From the NCBI GenBank assembly GCA_044225175.1, contig JBGAJA010000003.1, forward strand, positions 69,428 to 133,427: a stretch of DNA of 64,000 nt, written 5' to 3'. The position numbers were made by a program, and so were the translations under genes. Below are positions 2,535 to 28,322 of the stretch, in pieces (position 1 is the first letter of the stretch; each line of letters begins with the position of its first letter). The notes under the pieces are model-generated. The model was given only the letters and a program-made list of their open reading frames with translations, had not been told where the DNA came from and did no database searches. This DNA is from Candidatus Omnitrophota bacterium. Its GTDB lineage: Bacteria > Omnitrophota > Gorgyraeia > Zapsychrales > Fredricksoniimonadaceae.

Positions 2535-2644
2535 TAAATTTTGAGTCGATAGTATACCATGCAAAATTTAATTTTGTAAATAATATAAAAAGAGTGGCAT
2601 TAAATGCATTGCAGGGGCTTTTGCTTTCGTATAGAATTTTTGAA

Positions 2645-4381
2645 ATGAAAATCCAGCCTAATAGTCTCCTGCAAGTTTCACCTCTTTGGCTTTGCCTTTT
2701 CCAGTGGTCTAGCTTGATTTTTTTGGGTTTATTGATTTATGGCCAGAGTTTTGGTTTTGGCTTTGTTTTTGATGATGATCAATTCATCGTTAATAATCCT
2801 TACATTCATAACTTAAGCAAGGTCCATGAGATAGAACAAGCTCTTCCTTTGACGCGTTTGGTGGGGATTTATACATTTGCTTTAAATTATCATTTCCATG
2901 GTTTAAATCCCACCGGGTATCACCTCTTTAATGTTGTTCTCCATCTTGTCGTTACCGGATTAGTTTGGGCTTTGGCAAATTTATTGTTTAAGATCGTGGG
3001 GAAAGAACCAAAACAATTGCCATTTTTCATGGCCTTACTTTTTCTTGTTCATCCACTTCAAACCCAGGCAGTTACCTACATTTCTCAACGATTCGAATCG
3101 CTGGCCACATTATTTTATCTAACCACCATTTATTGTTATTTATCTGCCCGAATTTCTAAGGACATGCTGTCAAAGGTGATTCTTTTTTTGATTGCAGCTG
3201 TGAGTGCTTTTCTTGGGATTATGACTAAAGAGGTAGCAATCACTATTCCTTTAATGCTTTTAGCATGTGAATGGATTTTACTGCCTTCTAAGAATCCATC
3301 GGCAAAGTCATCTAGAAATTTAATGATCAGTGTAGGAGGCGTTTTATTCTTATTGGTATTTTTGAAACTTCTTCGAAGCGGTTTCAATATGTTTATTACA
3401 GCTTTACCGTCGCAATCCCACGATGGTGATACCATTGTGCTTGGAAATTATCTTTTGACTCAAATGAGAGTTTTTCTGACTTTTGTACGGTTATTTTTTG
3501 TTCCATATCCGCAGAATGTTGACTATGATTACCCTCTTTCAGTAAGTATTATTGATCCCTTATTGACCCTTGTAGGGGCAGGTCTGGTTTCTTTTCTAAT
3601 CCTGGCCATGATTAGAATCCGCCATAAATGGCCACTCATTTCTTTTGGGTTGGCTTGGGTTTTAATCACATTTTCAATTAATCTTGCACCTCGTGCGAAT
3701 GTCATTTGGGAACATAAATTTTATTTGATGTCATTTGGCTTCTTAATTGCAACGGTGAGTGTTTTAGCAAATTTGATCCACAAAAGGAGTTCATTAATCT
3801 TTATTGTATGTGCTGTAACGGCCGGGTTTACTTTCTTGAGTTTCCAGAGAAACCATATTTGGCAAAATGATTTTACACTTTGGGAAGATGGCATCAAACG
3901 GTCCCCAAATAAGGTTCGTGTGTATGTAGATTTAGCCAAAGCTAAAGGCACCCATGGGCAATTACAGCAAGCAATCACCCTACTTACCCAGAAATTATCT
4001 GTAACTCCTAATCATTATGGGTCCCTCATGGCTAGGGCAGGATTACAGTACCGCTTAGGGAATTATGATTTAGCGACGGAAGACCTCAGGCAAGCGGTCA
4101 TCGTAAGGCCTAATTTTATTGATTTTTATAAGCTCTCTTTGATTTACAGTGAACAAAAACAGATGGATAAAGCATTAGATGCCTTAAATACATCCATCTT
4201 ATTGAATGATAATTTTCTTCCAGCTTATATTGATCGAGCTATGATTTTTGTGCAGAAAAAGAATTATATTTTTGCTGTGGGAGATCTTGTGAAGGCCCAG
4301 AAGATACAGCCTCAAAATAAAGTTATCCAGAACAATATAGAATATTGTTTTTCAAAATTAAGGGTGCAGAAATCGCCTTAA
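2645..4381 (+). CDS. TPR-repeat membrane protein of the protein O-mannosyltransferase-like (GT39/TMTC-like) type
   Basis: Polytopic N-terminal region with an FDDDQFIVNNP (DD loop) motif typical of PMT/TMTC-like glycosyltransferases, and C-terminal TPR-like repeats. The ORF opens at GTG 2594; the first ATG is at 2645, so the start is uncertain. Confidence 0.55.
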   Translation: MKIQPNSLLQVSPLWLCLFQWSSLIFLGLLIYGQSFGFGFVFDDDQFIVNNPYIHNLSKVHEIEQALPLTRLVGIYTFALNYHFHGLNPTGYHLFNVVLHLVVTGLVWALANLLFKIVGKEPKQLPFFMALLFLVHPLQTQAVTYISQRFESLATLFYLTTIYCYLSARISKDMLSKVILFLIAAVSAFLGIMTKEVAITIPLMLLACEWILLPSKNPSAKSSRNLMISVGGVLFLLVFLKLLRSGFNMFITALPSQSHDGDTIVLGNYLLTQMRVFLTFVRLFFVPYPQNVDYDYPLSVSIIDPLLTLVGAGLVSFLILAMIRIRHKWPLISFGLAWVLITFSINLAPRANVIWEHKFYLMSFGFLIATVSVLANLIHKRSSLIFIVCAVTAGFTFLSFQRNHIWQNDFTLWEDGIKRSPNKVRVYVDLAKAKGTHGQLQQAITLLTQKLSVTPNHYGSLMARAGLQYRLGNYDLATEDLRQAVIVRPNFIDFYKLSLIYSEQKQMDKALDALNTSILLNDNFLPAYIDRAMIFVQKKNYIFAVGDLVKAQKIQPQNKVIQNNIEYCFSKLRVQKSP

Positions 4382-4423
4382 GAATATTCTTGTAAATCAT
4401 CTAAAAATGTACAGAATGGTTTT

Positions 4424-6673
4424 ATGTTTAGACGTTCCCATGCAAAATTAATTTGCGGCATCAGCGAACTTTCCGGTTTATTTCATGACACTCCTAGCAT
4501 GGAAGTCTTCCTGCAAAAAATCACATTCATGGTCACCCACCACATGGAATGTGAAGTCTGTTCCATTTATCTTTATTATGAAGATCAAAATGAATTAGTC
4601 CTCAAAGCCACAACCGGCCTCAGTCCATCTTCTCTAGGTGAGGTCAAAATGAAACCTGGCGAGGGATTAACAGGACTAGCATTCAAGGAAAAACGTCCTA
4701 TTTGCGAGGGACAGGCGAAAGAAAGTCCTAATTTCCGTTTATTTCCAGGTATCGGAGAAGAACGTTTTGAGTCCTTTTTAGCAGTGCCTATTCTTCGAGG
4801 ATCTATGGAAATAGGTGTTATGGTCATTCAGAGTCAGAAAAAACATTCTTTTGCTTCCGATGAGATTGAGATTCTTCGCGCTATCACATCACAGCTGGCA
4901 ACCACTATTGAAACCGCCAGACTTTTAATTACCCTTAATGATCAGAAACAAAAGAAAGTTCAACCGCTGTCTGATCTGAAGCTCATCAAAGGCAGGAGCG
5001 GTTCTCAAGGAGTCGCTTTAGCCCAAAGTGTGGTGATTGGTAAGCTCCTGACAGATGTCGAATATTTAGCTAAATTATCCAAGGATACAACTGAAGAGAC
5101 TTTTCATAAGGCCGTGGAAGATTCTGAGAAGCAGCTGCAGCAGCTGCAGAAGCAAATTGAAAAAGACCTCTTCGATGCCAGTGGTCTTATATTTACCGCC
5201 CAGATCTTAATGCTCAAAGATAAAGGTTTTCTTGATGCCATTGTGGCGCATATTCGTGTGGGAGTGAATCCTCCTCAGGCCGTAGCTGGAGTGGTGAATG
5301 AGTATGTCCGCAAATTTAGTGCCATCGCAGATAATTACCTTCGAGACAAGATTTATGATGTTAAAGATGTGGGCCGTAGATTGCTCGAGAATATGACAGG
5401 CTTAAGCCACCATCAAGGCGACTTAGAGGGGCGTATCGTTATTGCACATGAGCTTCTGCCTTCCGATACGATCAAACTTTTTTCTCAAAATGTTAAAGGG
5501 ATCATTCTTCTAAGCGGGGGAGTGACGTCTCATGTGTCCATTCTCTCGAGATCTCTAAACATTCCTTTGGTCGTGGCCGATGAAGATGGCCTTTTATTAG
5601 TAGAGGATGGAACAAAAATACTTTTGGATGCCGAGATGGGTTATATTCATTTAAATCCATCTGCTGACACAATTAAGAAAACTTTTGATCGTGAGGACCT
5701 GCATAAAGATCTCGAGGAATTGAAGAAATCTATTCGTTTAAAACCTTTCACCAAAGATGGAACTCCCATTAAATTGATGGCAAACATTAATCTCTTAGGG
5801 GATTTGAAGGCTGCAACTGAGTTTAAAGCAAGCGGCATTGGCTTGTATAGAAGCGAGTTTCCTTTTCTTATTAGGAGTAGTTTTCCGTCGGAAGAAGAGC
5901 AGTATTTGATCTATCGAAAGCTTATGGAAGCTATGCCGGATAAGGATGTGACTCTGCGCACGCTGGATGTAGGGGGAGATAAGGTGCTTTCTTATTATGA
6001 CTATGGTCATGAAGAAAATCCATTTCTTGGCCTTCGCTCCATACGTTTTACTTTAAGGCATAAAGATGTTTTTATTACACAAATCCGTGCCATGCTTCGT
6101 GCAGGAGGTGGGACATCGGCCCGTTTAAAGATTATGTTTCCTATGATTTCTTCGATTGATGAATTTCAAGAAGCCAAAGGCATTGTTCAGGAATGTATTT
6201 TTCAAATGGAAAAAGAAAAGTATAAGATTGCCTATCCAAAGCTTGGCACCATGGTTGAGCTTCCCTCTGTCGTTGAGATCATTGATCAACTAGCTCAAGA
6301 AGCGGATTTCTTAAGTATTGGAACCAATGATTTTGTTCAGTATATGCTGGCGATTGACCGCACTAATGAACGCGTTGCCAATTTGTACTATCCTCAGCAT
6401 CCTTCTGTGTTAAGGTCACTTAAAAAGATTGTGGATGCGGCCTTGAAGCATGATAAAGAAATCTCAGTATGTGGGGATATGGCATCTAACCTTAAGTTTT
6501 TGCCTTTTTTGATTGGAATAGGTATTCGCACCTTAAGTGTGGATGCTCGTTATCTGCCAAAATTACATGAGAATCTCCAAGAGATCATTACGACTGATGC
6601 CCATAGGCTCAGTGAAGAAGTGCTCAAGCAGCATACCATTGAGCGAACCTCCCATCTTTTGAAAATCGAATAA
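4424..6673 (+). CDS. ptsP: Phosphoenolpyruvate-protein phosphotransferase with N-terminal GAF domain (EI-Ntr)
   Basis: GAF-like N-terminus; active-site His motif GGVTSHVSILSRSLNIPLVV; C-terminal PEP-utilizer motif SIGTNDFVQYMLAIDRTNE. Confidence 0.85.
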   Translation: MFRRSHAKLICGISELSGLFHDTPSMEVFLQKITFMVTHHMECEVCSIYLYYEDQNELVLKATTGLSPSSLGEVKMKPGEGLTGLAFKEKRPICEGQAKESPNFRLFPGIGEERFESFLAVPILRGSMEIGVMVIQSQKKHSFASDEIEILRAITSQLATTIETARLLITLNDQKQKKVQPLSDLKLIKGRSGSQGVALAQSVVIGKLLTDVEYLAKLSKDTTEETFHKAVEDSEKQLQQLQKQIEKDLFDASGLIFTAQILMLKDKGFLDAIVAHIRVGVNPPQAVAGVVNEYVRKFSAIADNYLRDKIYDVKDVGRRLLENMTGLSHHQGDLEGRIVIAHELLPSDTIKLFSQNVKGIILLSGGVTSHVSILSRSLNIPLVVADEDGLLLVEDGTKILLDAEMGYIHLNPSADTIKKTFDREDLHKDLEELKKSIRLKPFTKDGTPIKLMANINLLGDLKAATEFKASGIGLYRSEFPFLIRSSFPSEEEQYLIYRKLMEAMPDKDVTLRTLDVGGDKVLSYYDYGHEENPFLGLRSIRFTLRHKDVFITQIRAMLRAGGGTSARLKIMFPMISSIDEFQEAKGIVQECIFQMEKEKYKIAYPKLGTMVELPSVVEIIDQLAQEADFLSIGTNDFVQYMLAIDRTNERVANLYYPQHPSVLRSLKKIVDAALKHDKEISVCGDMASNLKFLPFLIGIGIRTLSVDARYLPKLHENLQEIITTDAHRLSEEVLKQHTIERTSHLLKIE

Positions 6674-22329: not shown

Positions 22330-22679
22330 CGTTATCTGGTAAGGCGTATATTTCTTTATTTAAAGAAGCTAAAGCCAAAGGTTACAGAATTACAGTTTTT
22401 TATTTAAGTATTCCAAGTAATAAGCTTGCTCAAGAGAGAGTGAAGCAGCGCGTTAAAGAGGGTGGGCATAATGTGCCAATAGTTGATATTAATAGGCGAT
22501 TTATTAGAAGTTGGCAGAATTTCATTAACCTTTATATGCCACTAACAGATTCTTGGTTGTTACTTGATAATTCAATGCTTAAACCAATTGAAGTAGCAAA
22601 ATGTGATCATGGTAAGATCAAAGTTTTGAATAAATCTTTATATAAAGAATTAATGGAGGGTAGAGATGACAAGTCTTAA
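22330..22679 (+). pseudogene. 5'-truncated paralog of the zeta-toxin-like ATPase gene (C-terminal ~110 codons only)
   Basis: Translation KEAKAKGYRITVFYLSIPSNKLAQERVKQRVKEGGHNVPIVDINRRF... aligns with the C-terminal half of the 23518..24090 protein (KEVKSKGYSVHIFFLWIPSEDLAKQRIKQRVKQGGHHVPDADVKRRL). The Walker-A N-terminal half is missing. Confidence 0.65.
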
Positions 22680-22833
22680 ATCTAGTACATTAATTTTAAA
22701 TAAAGCAGGAAAAGCAATGCGAAGTGCTGTACGTAAGGTTTTAGCAGAAAAGAAATTGAGAGGTGAGCCTGCTATTATTTGGAAGGATGGCAAGGTTGTA
22801 AAAGTCCCTGCAAGTCAATTAAGCAAAGCTTAA
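22666..22833 (+). CDS. 55-aa small protein, paralog A of the partner gene downstream of the zeta-like ATPase
   Basis: MTSLKSSTLILNKAGKAMRSAVRKVLAEKKLRGEPAIIWKDGKVVKVPASQLSKA, with SD GGAGGG 6 nt upstream. It is paralogous to 24087..24257 (shared core RGEPxIIWKxGKVVKxPA). Confidence 0.5.
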   Translation: MTSLKSSTLILNKAGKAMRSAVRKVLAEKKLRGEPAIIWKDGKVVKVPASQLSKA

Positions 22834-23517: not shown

Positions 23518-24090
23518 ATGCCTAAGCTTTATATAATTGCTGGTCCTAATGGCGCCGGAAAAACTACATTTGCTAAAGAATTTCTTCCTTCCTATGCGAA
23601 ATGTTCCAATTTTGTCAATGCAGATTTGATTGCGTTAGGTCTTTCTCCTTTCAGTCCAGCTCAAGTCAGTATTAAGGCTGGTAAATTGTTACTCGGTGAA
23701 ATCGATAATTTCATAATCCGTAAGATGGATTTCGCCTTTGAAACAACTCTCGCTGGAAGAACATATATAAATTTAATCAAAGAAGTTAAATCTAAAGGAT
23801 ATTCTGTACACATTTTCTTTTTGTGGATACCCAGCGAGGATTTAGCTAAACAAAGAATAAAGCAACGGGTCAAACAAGGTGGGCATCATGTGCCTGATGC
23901 AGATGTCAAAAGAAGGTTACGCCGTAGTCTGAAGAATTTTTTTAATCACTATAGTCCCTTGGTTGATGGATGGGACATTTTTGATAATTCCGGATCAGAG
24001 CCAAAATTGGTGGTTAAATCTAATGAAAAAGGGTTTCAGATTATTGATAAAGAACTTTATCGATATTTGCTCAACAAGGAGAACATATGA
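23518..24090 (+). CDS. Zeta-toxin-like / AAA_33-type P-loop kinase-fold ATPase
   Basis: Walker A IIAGPNGAGKTTFA. The overall fold matches zeta-toxin/UDP-GlcNAc-kinase-like proteins. 190 aa. Confidence 0.6.
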   Translation: MPKLYIIAGPNGAGKTTFAKEFLPSYAKCSNFVNADLIALGLSPFSPAQVSIKAGKLLLGEIDNFIIRKMDFAFETTLAGRTYINLIKEVKSKGYSVHIFFLWIPSEDLAKQRIKQRVKQGGHHVPDADVKRRLRRSLKNFFNHYSPLVDGWDIFDNSGSEPKLVVKSNEKGFQIIDKELYRYLLNKENI

Positions 24091-24257
24091 TTAAGAAAGT
24101 CGAAGGTGATGTTCTTTCTAAGAAAGCAGAAAAAGCCATGAAGAAGGCTGTGCAAGGTGTGATTGCAGACCGCAAAATGCGAGGCGAGCCTTTGATCATT
24201 TGGAAGAACGGTAAAGTTGTAAAGATTCCTGCTAAGGACTTAAAGCGGTTCGGATAA
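24087..24257 (+). CDS. 56-aa small protein, paralog B, translationally coupled (ATGA) to the ATPase
   Basis: MIKKVEGDVLSKKAEKAMKKAVQGVIADRKMRGEPLIIWKNGKVVKIPAKDLKRFG. Its start overlaps the ATPase stop. Its 3' end overlaps the att-like repeat. Confidence 0.5.
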   Translation: MIKKVEGDVLSKKAEKAMKKAVQGVIADRKMRGEPLIIWKNGKVVKIPAKDLKRFG

Positions 24258-24983: not shown

Positions 24984-25691
24984 ATGAATAATAAAATATC
25001 TGTGGTTGTTGCATTTCTTTTTCTGTTGATGTTTATTATCTGGAGTCAAATCAAAACTCCTGTCACCGATCAGGAGAATCAACCTACCGTTATTAATTCC
25101 CAGTCAGTCCCCATAGAAGAAAAAAAGATTCCTGAGGGAGATGTCATTCGAAAAACACGCGTCCAGCGAGGAGGAGATTTTACAGAAAACATTTTTTATG
25201 TGGGAGAAGTGGTCATTGCAGCTCAAAAGGTCTATGTGAACGGAACAATTGAAGAGACCGATCAAATCCCTGATGGAAAAGTCAAGTTTGAGGATGAATA
25301 CGAACAGACATATGGAGAAGAATATTATGAAAATGGGAAAAAGCACGGTAGTGTCACTGTTTATTACAACAGTGGGAAGTTAAAATCTGAGCAATTGTAC
25401 CAATACGGACAACTCATGAAAAATAAAGAGTATTATGAAAATGGATCCGTGCGTTTTGAGGTTGATTATTCGAATGCTATAACTGGGATTGATCAAAAAG
25501 AATCAGGGATTGGAAAACTTTATTATCCCAATGGCCTGCTTAAATATGAATGGAATCATACAACAACTCAAAATGAGGGTTATAAGCGGTCTTATAATCA
25601 GGATGGAACCTTAAGGGCAGAAAGCAAATTTGATTCTCAAGGGCATTTTATTGAAAATTCAAAGATTCAGGCTCCCCCACAGGAACTGTAA
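24984..25691 (+). CDS. MORN-variant (YwqK-like) repeat protein with N-terminal signal anchor
   Basis: Repeated YYENGK.K / YY.NG.L motifs (MORN_2-like). N-terminal TM. Confidence 0.5.
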   Translation: MNNKISVVVAFLFLLMFIIWSQIKTPVTDQENQPTVINSQSVPIEEKKIPEGDVIRKTRVQRGGDFTENIFYVGEVVIAAQKVYVNGTIEETDQIPDGKVKFEDEYEQTYGEEYYENGKKHGSVTVYYNSGKLKSEQLYQYGQLMKNKEYYENGSVRFEVDYSNAITGIDQKESGIGKLYYPNGLLKYEWNHTTTQNEGYKRSYNQDGTLRAESKFDSQGHFIENSKIQAPPQEL

Positions 25692-25730
25692 ATAGGAAAG
25701 AATATGGTATACTTGTATTGGACGGTTAGT

Positions 25731-25903
25731 CCGTTTGACGAAACGGCAAACCCATCGTAAGGTGGGGACCCTCATAGGCAGGTTCTATGAGGCCATGGCA
25801 AAATCCATGGGCAAAGCTATAGAGTCCTTAATTCAAAGGATAGTCAGCTGTCGAAACAAACAGTGTAACGACCTATTCTTTTATTTAAGGGATAGGTTTT
25901 TTT
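25731..25903 (+). promoter_or_regulatory. Structured 5' leader of the minor-pilin operon: four consecutive hairpins plus a terminator/attenuator; riboswitch-like
   Basis: H1 CCGTTT-gacg-AAACGG (25731-25746). GGCAAACC at 25745-25752 overlaps H1 and leads into H2 CCCATC-GTAA-GGTGGG (25751-25766, GNRA loop). H3 is CCTCATAG-gcaggtt-CTATGAGG (25770-25792). H4 is CCATGG-caaaat-CCATGG (25793-25810). Terminator stem at 25871-25896 followed by 7 T's at 25897-25903, 19 nt before the pilin ATG. Confidence 0.35.
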
Positions 25904-25921
25904 ATTGAGGCTTATGAAAAA

Positions 25922-26302
25922 ATGAAAAGAAAAAATCAAAAAGGATTTACCCTGGTAGAAGTTATGGTTTCGGTTTTTATTGTTTTTATAACGATGGTGG
26001 GGACTCTGCAGCTATACGTGCATACTTCGCGCCTGGCGGAAATTGCTGGAGATAAGAGTATCGTTCTTAACGAAGCCCAAAATAAGATGGATGAAATTCG
26101 TAATACCGCCTTTAGTTTGATCGCCTCAACTTATCCTACAGGAACAACATTTGCTTTGCCCTCACAATTAACAGGAAGCGCCACGATTACCTTAGATACA
26201 TCTAACAGTAACATCTATGGTGTCACCATCACGATGACATGGAAGAATAAGAAAGGGTTCGGCTCAACGTTAACACTTGTTAGCAGGATTGCAAATAAAT
26301 GA
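25922..26302 (+). CDS. Prepilin-type N-terminal cleavage/methylation domain protein (PilV/GspH-like minor pilin)
   Basis: KGFTLVEVMVSVFIVFI prepilin signature. Confidence 0.7.
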   Translation: MKRKNQKGFTLVEVMVSVFIVFITMVGTLQLYVHTSRLAEIAGDKSIVLNEAQNKMDEIRNTAFSLIASTYPTGTTFALPSQLTGSATITLDTSNSNIYGVTITMTWKNKKGFGSTLTLVSRIANK

Positions 26303-26829
26303 TAAATACAAATAGAAACACTCAAGGAATCAGTTTGACGGAAATTTTGGTAACAGTGGCTTTATTGACGTTGCTTTCAGGAGGGGCAGTACAGCTTTTA
26401 ATAGTCGGCTCGGATTCTTATGTTGTTAACAAAAATAAAATAGAATTACAACAGGAGCTTCGAAAATCCGTCGATTGGATCAAAGAGGATTTGCGTCAGA
26501 CAGGTATAAATGGTTTGGTGAATATGAATACAGACACGACCTATACTCAAATCACTTTTCGTGTGGCTGTGGGAGCTGTGGCAGGTGGAACAACCACATG
26601 GTCAAACAACACGATTCAATATATGTTAGGGGGAACAGGAGGGGTACAACTGCGAAGGATCTCTGGTGCTACGACTCAAATTATTGCGCAGAATATAACC
26701 ACATTGCAGTTTAGACGCAATTCCAGCGCCCCCAATATTATTATTGTGACCATAACATCATCCAACAATCAGGGAAAAGGAGGAACAATTTCTCTTAATT
26801 ACAGTGCTAAAATAAATATACGTAATTAA
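26299..26829 (+). CDS. Prepilin-type minor pilin (PilW/GspJ-like)
   Basis: QGISLTEILVTVALLTLL prepilin signature. The start overlaps the upstream stop (ATGA). Confidence 0.6.
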   Translation: MINTNRNTQGISLTEILVTVALLTLLSGGAVQLLIVGSDSYVVNKNKIELQQELRKSVDWIKEDLRQTGINGLVNMNTDTTYTQITFRVAVGAVAGGTTTWSNNTIQYMLGGTGGVQLRRISGATTQIIAQNITTLQFRRNSSAPNIIIVTITSSNNQGKGGTISLNYSAKINIRN

Positions 26830-26852
26830 ATAATGAGAAATTGTAAAAAAAT

Positions 26853-28322
26853 ATGAAAATAAAAATAATATCTAATGATCGAGCAAGCATACTGATGTTG
26901 TGCATTATGGTAGTGGCCATGCTTGTAAGCTTTGGAGGTGCTTTTATGCTTTTAAGCTTAGGCGAGGCCAGGGTGGTTGAAAGAGGGCGGATCAACACGA
27001 TTGCTTTTAATATCGCTGAAGCTGGACTTGAACAGGCTATGTATGCAGTCAGGGCAGATTTTTTAAATGATCGAAGCTGGAGTACGGTGACGGTGGGTTC
27101 CACATATACGCCGTCGACGGCAAACTGGACCGATATTTATTCTGGCGTCAGCTTAAACGGTGGAACATATACTTCTTCCATTAAGGCCACAGAGCAACCA
27201 CAAGAGCTCTGGCTTCAATCTACAGGAACTTATAGCGGCCAAACCCAGACAATCAGGACTTATGTCAAAATGGTCAGCTCTTCTCCTTGGGACAATGCCA
27301 TTTTTACTGGGTCGGGTTTTATGGGTGCTGCGGTCAACGGGAACGTCAATATTAGAGGTTCTGTCGTTATTCTAGGGACGGGACTCAAAAGTACTGATCA
27401 TGCCATTGATCTAGGAGGGACGGCGGAGCTTGTGGGCAATAATTACAATACTTTACCAGATTCAATTTTGCCAAAAATTCCTGCCTTACCAACCATAGTT
27501 TTTGGTAATGAGACGATATCAACGCTTAATGCAACTTTGCGTGTTAAACGGGGCAAGGTAGCACTGAGTGGATCATCTGCCGTTGGAGAAGCAAATGTCA
27601 TCGGCAACAGTGTCAAAGAAACAGTTGACGGTGTGTATGTTACAGATGGTTTTGCAGGCAACCAAGGAAGTGCCAATGTCCATTCAGATAATGGTTGGTC
27701 CAACGCTTTTGATCTTTCCAATGTTGTTTTCCCAACTTTAGGCTGCGGAGCCACGTATTGTGATGGGTATTACACATCCTCAACAGGATATAACTCCGAT
27801 GCTGTTATTATTAATGGAAATGTTAACATTACTCCGACGACCACGATTGCCCCGGTCACTAGCGGATCAAACAGTTTTAGGGTAGACAATGGCAATATTA
27901 CTATTGTCGGCAAGGTTTATATTAAAGGGACTTTATCCATGAATAAGTCTGGTCCTAATAAAACCGTTACTTATAGTGGGAACGGTTCTATTTTAACTTC
28001 TGGCACTGTCCAGATTAATGCTGACTTACTGACCAACGGCGATAATTCCTACCCAACAAATGTTATGGCTATTATGACTCCAGCGTCTGTTTTCTTTAAT
28101 GAAGCGAATATTAATGTGATGGGGTTATTTTATGGTGGGACAAATATAATTGTACAAAAGCAGACCAATATTATAGGAACACTCGTTTCGAATTGGGTTA
28201 GTGTGGGACAAAACGTTCCTTCTGTATATCAGGTTCCCGATACCGCCAACCATTTGCCAGCAGGTCTTATCGGTGCAGACTCAGGATGGTCTTTAAGGGT
28301 AGTATCTTGGCAGAAGATGTGA
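26853..28322 (+). CDS. PilX-like (PilX_N domain) type IV pilus / pseudopilus assembly protein
   Basis: The N-terminal hydrophobic segment followed by NTIAFNIAEAGLEQA matches the PilX_N signature. Gly/Thr/Asn-rich beta-helix-like remainder. Confidence 0.55.
   Translation: MKIKIISNDRASILMLCIMVVAMLVSFGGAFMLLSLGEARVVERGRINTIAFNIAEAGLEQAMYAVRADFLNDRSWSTVTVGSTYTPSTANWTDIYSGVSLNGGTYTSSIKATEQPQELWLQSTGTYSGQTQTIRTYVKMVSSSPWDNAIFTGSGFMGAAVNGNVNIRGSVVILGTGLKSTDHAIDLGGTAELVGNNYNTLPDSILPKIPALPTIVFGNETISTLNATLRVKRGKVALSGSSAVGEANVIGNSVKETVDGVYVTDGFAGNQGSANVHSDNGWSNAFDLSNVVFPTLGCGATYCDGYYTSSTGYNSDAVIINGNVNITPTTTIAPVTSGSNSFRVDNGNITIVGKVYIKGTLSMNKSGPNKTVTYSGNGSILTSGTVQINADLLTNGDNSYPTNVMAIMTPASVFFNEANINVMGLFYGGTNIIVQKQTNIIGTLVSNWVSVGQNVPSVYQVPDTANHLPAGLIGADSGWSLRVVSWQKM

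Follow-up and report, generated by a model that had tools for sequence, protein, structure and literature searches.

The window analysed here, a 64-kb stretch of DNA from a Candidatus Omnitrophota bacterium, contains a hairpin-rich leader of 234 nt ahead of a three-gene minor-pilin operon, and the locus raises the question of what this leader senses and how it acts on the genes behind it. The folding energy of the leader (-72.5 kcal/mol) lies far below that of shuffled sequences (-53.0 +/- 4.9 kcal/mol; z = -4.0, with 0 of 200 shuffles equal to it). A preliminary description had pointed to a partial resemblance to the class I riboswitch for cyclic di-GMP (c-di-GMP), known as c-di-GMP-I or GEMM-I (Rfam family RF01051; Vc2 of Vibrio cholerae), with a protein-dependent attenuator as an alternative. 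The comparisons reported here favour a class I c-di-GMP riboswitch whose aptamer contains an insertion of two hairpins, X and Y, and which acts as an OFF switch on transcription of the operon; the probability of this statement as a whole is put at about 0.72. That positions 25733-25861 constitute a GEMM-I-derived aptamer with the X+Y insertion is close to certain, and c-di-GMP is its probable ligand. Aptamer nucleotides are numbered as in Vc2, following PMC3764141 and other secondary papers, and labels such as L003 denote contigs or loci that carry related leaders.

Scanned on both strands against 4227 Rfam families, the window yields three tRNAs and nothing else at gathering thresholds, and the leader is not reported. 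Its match to RF01051 at 25781-25855 (33.2 bits; expectation value E = 0.011 over the whole window) is the sole non-tRNA match with E of 1 or less in the 64 kb, and stops 1.8 bits short of the gathering score of 35 bits. RF03167 (c-di-GMP-I-GGC) is matched in part at 25748-25769 (18.4 bits, threshold 59), over exactly AAACCCATCGTAAGGTGGGGAC, and matches of the leader to PyrR (21.9 bits, threshold 54, in the terminator region), MIR5298 and BTnc231 were discarded as far below their thresholds. In the RF01051 alignment P3 is nearly perfect, and hairpin Y (CCATGG-CAAAAT-CCATGG) is taken as P2. Because Y has neither an AAA/GAC internal loop nor a GNRA tetraloop, and a real-looking P2 lies 41 nt upstream, an aptamer split by an insertion was suggested. 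The 41-nt insertion accounts for the sub-threshold score by forcing the wrong register, and the failure of the leader to reach the gathering score is a false negative; the Rfam search proposed as a check in the preliminary description is thus silent at its default threshold and informative just beneath it.

In GEMM-I, P2 consists of 2-bp and 6-bp stems around an AAA/GAC internal loop, with a GNRA cap (PMC1950547), and in Vc2 it is made up of G21-C22, A23-25, the GNRA stem, G42-A43-C44 and G45-C46, with G20 in the joining region J1/2 and the G14-C93 pair at the top of P1 (PMC3764141). The segment quoted in the preliminary description (GGCAAACC-CATC-GTAA-GGTG-GGGAC, at 25745-25769; full string GGCAAACCCATCGTAAGGTGGGGAC) does contain such a P2, formed by 25746-25769 together with 25811-25812 and capped by a GUAA loop, but its 3' strand is interrupted: where c-di-GMP-I has a contiguous GAC-GC-AAA, the 41 nt of X+Y (25770-25810) intervene, X and then Y abutting, exactly between C44 and G45. 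The GCAAAGC element that had seemed to be missing, and to recur about 45 nt later, has been displaced by this insertion (GGGCAAAGC, at 25809-25817, with 41 nt between GAC and GCAAAGC). No 11-nt receptor is expected in P3, because the tetraloop is GUAA, one of the GYRA loops (PMC1950547).

The core nucleotides are kept in the window as G25745 (G20), C25769 (C44), A25813-25815 (A47-A49) and G25843 (G83). G20 contacts one guanine of the ligand (PMC5888326, PMC3764141), A47 stacks between both ligand bases (PMC3764141), and in Vc2 C44 of the P2 internal loop forms an inter-helix pair with the bulged G83 of P3 (PMC3764141, PMC4744006); by analogy, C25769 and G25843 may pair likewise. The covarying P3 and closing P1 expected of the class are both present. 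P1 comprises 2 + 5 bp with one A-A mismatch (25738 with 25856); C25739 and G25740 pair with G25853 and C25852 (C13-G94 and G14-C93 in Vc2), a P1 that the RF03167 consensus contains at the corresponding positions, and relatives have UUUGA...UCAAA at the positions equivalent to GUUUG/CAAAC. The 5-nt J1/2 also occurs in several canonical relatives and in L125, where it is GACGAAACGGC, as in the window. Among the four hairpins of the preliminary description, the first (CCGTTTGACGAAACGG, 25731-25746) is not kept in L003, and its bases make more sense as P1 (5' strand) and J1/2 with G20; a fifth, P3 (25815-25849), which bears most of the Rfam match, had not been counted.

An independent covariance model (R1) was built from eight insertion-bearing aptamers (L005, L034, L104, L059, L115, L112, L014 and L082), excluding the immediate clade of the window, with the structure annotated by hand. 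Its match to the window runs from 25737 to 25857, takes in every one of the 125 model positions and scores 53.9 bits (E = 1.3e-11); the helices P1, P2, X, Y and P3 all fall into the register proposed here. Orthologues of the window score 57.9 (L003), 61.3 (L139), 61.8 (L150) and 64.4 bits (L035), and over the loci fetched insertion variants receive 48-122 bits and canonical relatives 30-55 bits. The second match in the window (2591-2705, minus strand; 11.3 bits, E = 0.43) shows on direct reading no hairpin that could be P2 and is taken as noise. The X+Y subclass that R1 defines has two linker-free hairpins between C44 and G45 and a complete GEMM-I core, and the window has both. The resemblance to c-di-GMP-I, partial when first described, is therefore borne out by RF01051, by R1 and by the compensatory changes found in orthologues.

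The protein collection holds seven homologues of the PilV-like protein encoded by the first gene of the operon, and leaders were sought with DNA-pattern scans because these homologues are too few. L003 encodes one of them (65% identity), and its leader can be aligned with that of the window along the full length: every helix is kept with compensatory changes (the basal P2 pair, C-G in the window, is G-C in L003, and one P3 pair changes from A-U to G-C), as are the terminator stem and U-run, and the middle hairpins, although wholly different in sequence (44 nt), are again two. Closer relatives came from metagenomes, scanned with a pattern built around the P1 and J1/2 typical of the lineage (TTTGACGA-N3-4-GGCAAA...): the insertion-bearing L139, L150, L167, L125, L153 and L137, together with many canonical relatives that lack the insertion and have the same flanks and similar terminators. 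Among the matches listed, the closest leader in a named genome belongs to an Omnitrophota metagenome-assembled genome (L035). Conservation of the hairpins in orthologous leaders, which had been named as a further check, extends to all helices of the aptamer.

The X+Y module is not confined to the lineage of the window, a recurrence that the preliminary description overlooked. Species-representative genomes were scanned with the pattern GGCAAA-N6-GNRA-N6-GRC-N(15-45)-GGGCAAAGC, followed by a filter for a perfect P2 stem, and at least about two dozen aptamers arranged in this way were found, bringing the total with an X+Y module to at least about 35. Among the matches listed, the hosts are Omnitrophota, Planctomycetia, delta-proteobacterial bins, one bin labelled Actinomycetota and unclassified bins; each of the 27 listed inserts of that scan folds into two hairpins, X directly after GRC and Y directly before GCAAAGC with zero linkers, and the inserts have on average 12.9 contiguous outer pairs, compared with 4.9 for shuffled inserts scored alike.

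Alignments of full-length aptamers made with MAFFT shift X and Y by at least one column, and a trimmed core alignment (A3) and a covariance-model alignment (A6) were used for this reason. A3 comprises 32 distinct sequences of equal length (the flank and P2, the five outermost nucleotides of both arms of X and of Y, and GCAAAGC), selected with a perfect P2 as a criterion, with the X/Y boundary chosen for maximal pairing and the outer ends of X and Y fixed by anchors, and on those terms 98.6% of its cells are paired, all five X and all five Y pairs change on both sides, and covariation reaches a score of 0.892, a value that none of 500 shuffles attained (0.213 in shuffles), compared with 0.18 or less when partners are slid. 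A6 comprises 34 full-length sequences aligned by R1, and is thus fitted to the structure of the model, which favours that structure; 96.2% of its cells are paired, both sides change in 27 of the 31 pairs, and the covariation score is 0.732 (0.233 in shuffles, at most 0.147 when slid). Covarying pairs in A6 amount to 4/4 in X, 6/6 in Y, 6/6 in P2 and 10/11 in P3, and the C13-G94 pair of P1 is C-G in 19 sequences and U-A in 10. Between the two alignments, covariation is seen in each of the four or five outer pairs of X (cells paired: 100% and 98.8%), as it is in all five or six outer pairs of Y and all six upper pairs of P2. Homology to GEMM-I and the X+Y architecture are established by these comparisons.

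Beyond their junction-proximal pairs, to which G-C richness is confined, X and Y are free to vary: X ranges from 14 to 41 nt and Y from 12 to 55 nt, loops and lengths are unconstrained, several short X hairpins are capped by GNRA loops, and the loops of Y are not conserved. The core is kept in A6, with A47-A49, G83, G45 and C46 present in 34/34 sequences, C44 in all 33 that have a base at that position, and G20 in 33/34. In view of such free variation in length and sequence, X and Y most likely serve as peripheral scaffold helices rather than ligand contacts; in the most economical view, they turn the internal loop of P2 into a four-way junction while the A23-25 and G42-C44 strands stay in place. 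In L125 (24-330, plus strand) and L153 (4955-5131, minus strand), X and Y are enlarged to 41-55 nt each, within inserts of 83-96 nt. In L123 (1118-1256, minus strand), which precedes a similar minor-pilin operon, GAC and GCAAAAC (its J2/3-P3 start, compared with GCAAAGC) are not separated by an insertion; two extra hairpins lie within the 5' strand of P3 instead, so that the fold has a second place at which the lineage tolerates insertions.

RF01051 already detects part of the X+Y subclass: among the matches listed, 11 of the 19 insertion-bearing leaders screened pass its gathering score (36.8-48.4 bits), with L150, L167 and L137 at 38.9-40.1 bits, and the other eight (L003, L024, L027, L035, L037, L042, L076 and L106) fall below it, as the window does. 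In the aptamers that pass, the module is mostly treated as a giant P2 loop and part of Y is taken as the 3' arm of P2, giving non-standard pairs. For example, L082 (1998-2139, minus strand; 48.4 bits) is aligned with 43 nt as the P2 loop and part of Y as the 3' arm; the match is right and its register is structurally wrong. Four canonical aptamers (L141:7536-7613, L173:1603-1681, L135:754-829 and L179:211-287) score above the gathering threshold of RF03167 (68.8-70.2 bits) and carry A47, although the RF03167 consensus has G47 (GACGCGAA), and their Rfam labels follow similarity of scaffold rather than of pocket. L091 has a canonical copy (81.9 bits in Rfam) and an insertion-bearing copy, at 4391-4474 and 6134-6271, and thus the two forms coexist in one genome. 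Aptamers paired a few kb apart, with two long matches each, occur in L121 (2423-2596 and 3975-4118) and L153 (4955-5131 and 9020-9203).

A c-di-GMP-I riboswitch is expected 5' of genes that act in motility, in signalling, in pili or in the envelope, and the leader lies 5' of PilV/W/X-like genes. The proteins of the operon have the prepilin N-methylation (N_methyl) motif and weak matches to PilV, GspJ/PpdB and PilX_N, so that the label of minor-pilin operon given in the preliminary description is a fair one. The same PilV/W/X-like set follows the riboswitch in L003, L139, L150, L167 and L125, which have the insertion, and in L123, which has a different one; in canonical L172 the same three genes stand behind an additional first open reading frame, and in canonical L135 and L179, which are short contigs, only a pilin-like first gene is readable. 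Other insertion-bearing members precede a pilin gene (L121), a PilM-like gene (L024), genes for large secreted proteins, and some genes that are PilZ-like by N-terminal sequence. The gene association is thus conserved, and the pilus-linked contexts agree with published associations of GEMM (PMC1950547).

Table 1. Features of the leader and operon, in window coordinates.
Feature	Positions	Strand	Details and basis
Putative extended -10 promoter element, TGGTATACT	25705-25713	+	Boxes in orthologues and rarity of the 9-mer; inference
Whole aptamer, c-di-GMP-I (GEMM-I) type with two-hairpin insertion	25733-25861	+	R1, Rfam
P1, 5' strand	25733-25740	+	GUUUG (25733-25737) pairs with CAAAC (25857-25861)
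J1/2, AAACG	25741-25745	+	G25745 = G20
P2 (= P1a)	25746-25769	+	Lower pairs G46/C47 (25746-25747), AAA loop, 6-bp stem CCCAUC/GGUGGG, GUAA tetraloop, GAC 25767-25769
Inserted hairpin X	25770-25792	+	9 bp, CAGGU loop
Inserted hairpin Y	25793-25810	+	6 bp CCAUGG/CCAUGG, CAAAAU loop
G45, C46 and J2/3 AAA (A47-A49)	25811-25815	+	G45/C46 pair with 25746-25747; AAA at 25813-25815
P3 (= P1b)	25815-25849	+	Bulged A25842/G25843 = A82/G83; Rfam alignment, covariation
J3/1	25850-25851	+	U25851 = position 92
P1, 3' strand	25852-25861	+	C93, G94, AAA, CAAAC; sequence and R1 alignment
Candidate antiterminator	25835-25881	+	P3 3' strand AAAGGAUAGUC (25835-25845) with terminator 5' arm GACCUAUUCUUU (25870-25881); inference
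Intrinsic terminator	25870-25903	+	12-bp stem (25870-25898), 5-nt loop, U7; terminator scan
Shine-Dalgarno GAGG and first-gene ATG	25907-25924	+	GAGG 25907-25910, ATG 25922; sequence
Regulated operon	25922-28322	+	PilV-like 25922-26302, PilW/GspJ-like 26299-26829, PilX-like 26853-28322

Apart from the Rfam score under the gathering threshold and the selection built into A3 and A6, what weighs against the reading of the leader as an OFF switch for c-di-GMP is the modest signal of its antiterminator and the identity of one nucleotide in the pocket. The terminator reported in the preliminary description is present ahead of the pilin gene, its U-run ending 18 nt before the ATG, and relatives carry similar terminators (CCUAUYC...GRAUAGG). 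The 3' arm of the terminator (AAGGGAUAGGUU) mimics the 3' strand of P3, and the 5' arm can therefore pair with either. With c-di-GMP bound, P3 would be held closed, the terminator would form and the operon would be off; without ligand, the 5' arm of the terminator would pair with the 3' strand of P3 as an antiterminator and allow read-through. The duplex of the P3 3' strand with the terminator 5' arm is calculated at -9.5 kcal/mol, that of the two P3 strands at -9.2 kcal/mol and that of the two terminator arms at -13.7 kcal/mol. In a transcript ending at 25882, the antiterminator fold (-44.5 kcal/mol) is just 2.3 kcal/mol better than the native two-dimensional aptamer fold (-42.2 kcal/mol) and 1.2 kcal/mol worse than another non-native fold (-45.7 kcal/mol), a near-isoenergetic balance that the energy of ligand binding could readily tip, and the minimum-energy fold of the full-length leader holds aptamer and terminator together (-58.7 kcal/mol).

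The complementarity of the P3 3' strand to the terminator 5' arm in the window is significant against shuffled arms (z = -2.4), and similar values are obtained for L003, L035, L150, L167, L151, L173 and L175. It is absent in the close relatives L139, L129 and L124, and a family-wide test for an antiterminator found no general signal (mean z = -0.57, with 9 of 46 leaders, the window among them, at z < -2), for which reason the OFF model is claimed for the group of the window only. The same aptamer might follow another logic, in which the terminator is not governed by the proposed antiterminator and c-di-GMP turns the operon on, or translation or RNA stability is controlled as well. Many GEMM-I riboswitches are ON switches whose terminator competes with P3 (PMC1950547), L043, L064 and L112 have overlapping terminators of this type, and, besides the relatives in which the antiterminator signal is missing, the energy minimum of the window keeps an aptamer-like fold without the antiterminator at all transcript lengths tested up to 25886 and again from 25898, although at 25890 it is transiently rearranged, with the antiterminator pairing included. 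In the window, however, the aptamer is complete at 25861, ahead of a terminator with which it shares no nucleotides, and hence the bound aptamer cannot block the terminator directly; the P3 3' strand is the only significant alternative partner of the terminator 5' arm, which leads to the OFF logic. The other logic is thus a minority prospect, though one to be taken seriously, and the evidence leans towards switching in the OFF direction.

The pocket nucleotide in question is position 92, which is U25851 in the window and C in 33 of the 34 sequences of A6; the window has the sole U. The orthologues L003, L139, L150 and L035 read CC in place of the UC of the window, and U92 was found in two other metagenome assemblies of this contig as well (L001 and L002), making three independent assemblies with that of the window. 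The samples SRR28480385 and SRR28480388 contain the contig. The C92U mutant of Vc2 reportedly still binds c-di-GMP through a wobble pair. The aptamer of the window could instead have altered or relaxed specificity, its pocket of G20, A47 and U92 pairing with adenine at the site of the second guanine, such that 3',3'-cyclic GMP-AMP (3',3'-cGAMP) or another dinucleotide is preferred or c-di-GMP is bound much more weakly. Its favourable evidence, beyond the uniqueness of U92 among the 34 and its recurrence across assemblies, is that C92 normally makes a Watson-Crick pair with a guanine of the ligand (PMC5888326) and that a G20A/C92U double mutant binds cyclic diadenosine monophosphate (PMC7288161). 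Against it, natural class I riboswitches reportedly conserve A47 more strongly than G20 and C92 (PMC9049102), and versions with C92 control the orthologous operons in L003, L139, L150 and L167, which makes a single transition to U92 the simpler reading. A change of specificity is accordingly judged improbable; U92 weakens confidence in c-di-GMP as the ligand without overturning it.

A decaying relic that has lost ligand binding, its terminator left as a constitutive attenuator, would also account for U92, for the sub-threshold Rfam score and for the A-A mismatch in P1. It is less probable still, in that all other invariant nucleotides and all helices are intact, the R1 score is near those of the orthologues L003, L139 and L150 (57.9-61.8 bits), and the 5-nt J1/2 is shared with other relatives. 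There is hardly any room for the register proposed by Rfam, in which the aptamer would span 25781-25855 with Y as P2 and the upstream GNRA hairpin would be unrelated or vestigial: this is the alignment as produced by cmscan, at 33.2 bits, but Y has no AAA/GAC internal loop, C44 or GNRA loop, its loops are unconserved across the family, R1 rates the register with P2 at 25746-25769 higher by 20 bits, a register in which G20, C44 and P1 are preserved, and the Rfam alignment of L082 yields non-standard P2 pairs from the same cause. Nor does the protein-dependent attenuator of the preliminary description, or a set of hairpins unrelated to riboswitches, find support, being about as implausible, for nothing specific favours it except the PyrR match over the terminator region, which falls well short of its threshold and is accounted for by the hairpin of the terminator, and the conserved single-stranded nucleotides are all those of the c-di-GMP-I pocket.

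Upstream of the class I aptamer, the 9-mer TGGTATACT is probably the extended -10 promoter element of the organism. TATACT-like boxes lie 15-20 nt 5' of P1 in orthologous leaders, and the 9-mer has two copies in the window (chance expectation 0.24), the other being at 2551-2559 on the minus strand, just upstream of a tRNA gene. A sigma-70 scan did not call TGGTATACT, because it has no -35 element. The transcript would start approximately 7-10 nt downstream of TGGTATACT, about 10 nt before P1. A 57-amino-acid open reading frame with a TTG start (25735-25908, plus strand) overlies the aptamer and terminator; it was rejected as a leader peptide, since orthologous leaders show insertions and deletions within its span, and is a mechanical by-product of the RNA element.

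The product of the gene directly upstream of the riboswitch (24984-25691, plus strand) has MORN repeats and, at its N-terminus, a hydrophobic segment; there is no terminator between this gene and the riboswitch. L003 has a gene of similar size at the same place, and gene order may therefore be conserved. Farther upstream, a two-gene module is present in duplicate (22440-22833 and 23518-24257, plus strand), each copy consisting of a gene for a P-loop kinase-like protein (190 amino acids in the second copy, a C-terminal fragment of 79 amino acids in the first) followed by a gene for a similar protein of 55-56 amino acids (...RGEPxIIWKxGKVVKxPA...); judged from sequence, the module looks like a toxin-antitoxin-type pair with one copy truncated.

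Compared with c-di-GMP-I as known from Vc2, the leader has the same P1/P2/P3 layout, GGCAAAC...GNRA...GGGAC, J2/3 AAA, G20 and C44-G83, a GYRA tetraloop without the 11-nt receptor, a Rho-independent terminator and an association with pilus genes. It differs in the 41-nt two-hairpin insertion, which converts the 3-nt/3-nt internal loop of P2 into a four-way junction, in having U rather than C at position 92, in its RF01051 score 1.8 bits under the gathering threshold, and in a terminator that does not overlap P3 (likely OFF), in contrast to the ON arrangement highlighted in the original description. RF03167 is resembled in that insertion-free close relatives score highly, P2 of the window gives an 18.4-bit partial match and P1 is shared; its consensus nucleotide G47 is replaced by A47 (GCAAAGC) in the window and in all 34 aligned sequences, so that what the two have in common goes back to a common ancestral scaffold and not to the nucleotide that sets the variant apart. 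The 3',3'-cGAMP riboswitch of Geobacter (GEMM-Ib) has the same fold, belongs to the same clan and has a pocket altered at a single position (PMC7288161); GEMM-Ib RNAs have A20 and keep C92, whereas the window has G20 (G25745) and U92.

Other riboswitch classes also tolerate additional helices. Thiamine pyrophosphate, cobalamin and S-adenosylmethionine (SAM-I) aptamers have optional extra stems at a fixed point of the core, which covary and lack conserved loop sequences. Unlike these, the X+Y module consists of two helices without linkers that adjoin C44 of a tertiary pair. The architecture is unmentioned in the original description of GEMM (PMC1950547), and the literature searched, which lay outside the primary structural and variant papers, contained no description of an insertion or four-way-junction form of c-di-GMP-I; it appears to be undescribed. 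It is conceivable, though put forward as speculation of fairly low probability, that X+Y aptamers are a distinct, undescribed four-way-junction subclass of class I found in several phyla, in which helices beside the C44-G83 pair alter the folding of the pocket or the rate or tightness of ligand binding, and that the U92 copy in the window is tuned to another concentration range or cyclic dinucleotide.

The kind of riboswitch, its family of ligands and its connection with pili are all well known, and the biological surprise is therefore moderate. The leader is a genuine riboswitch missed by default Rfam annotation, and those X+Y relatives that do score are misregistered; a dedicated X+Y model would recover missed aptamers and extend c-di-GMP regulons in Omnitrophota and Planctomycetota. 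A natural insertion of two helices beside C44 marks a permissive site of the GEMM-I fold, and the X+Y aptamer gives studies of structure and folding a four-way junction that occurs in nature. In phyla that have received little attention, Omnitrophota and Planctomycetota among them, c-di-GMP appears to control the minor pilins of type IV pili.

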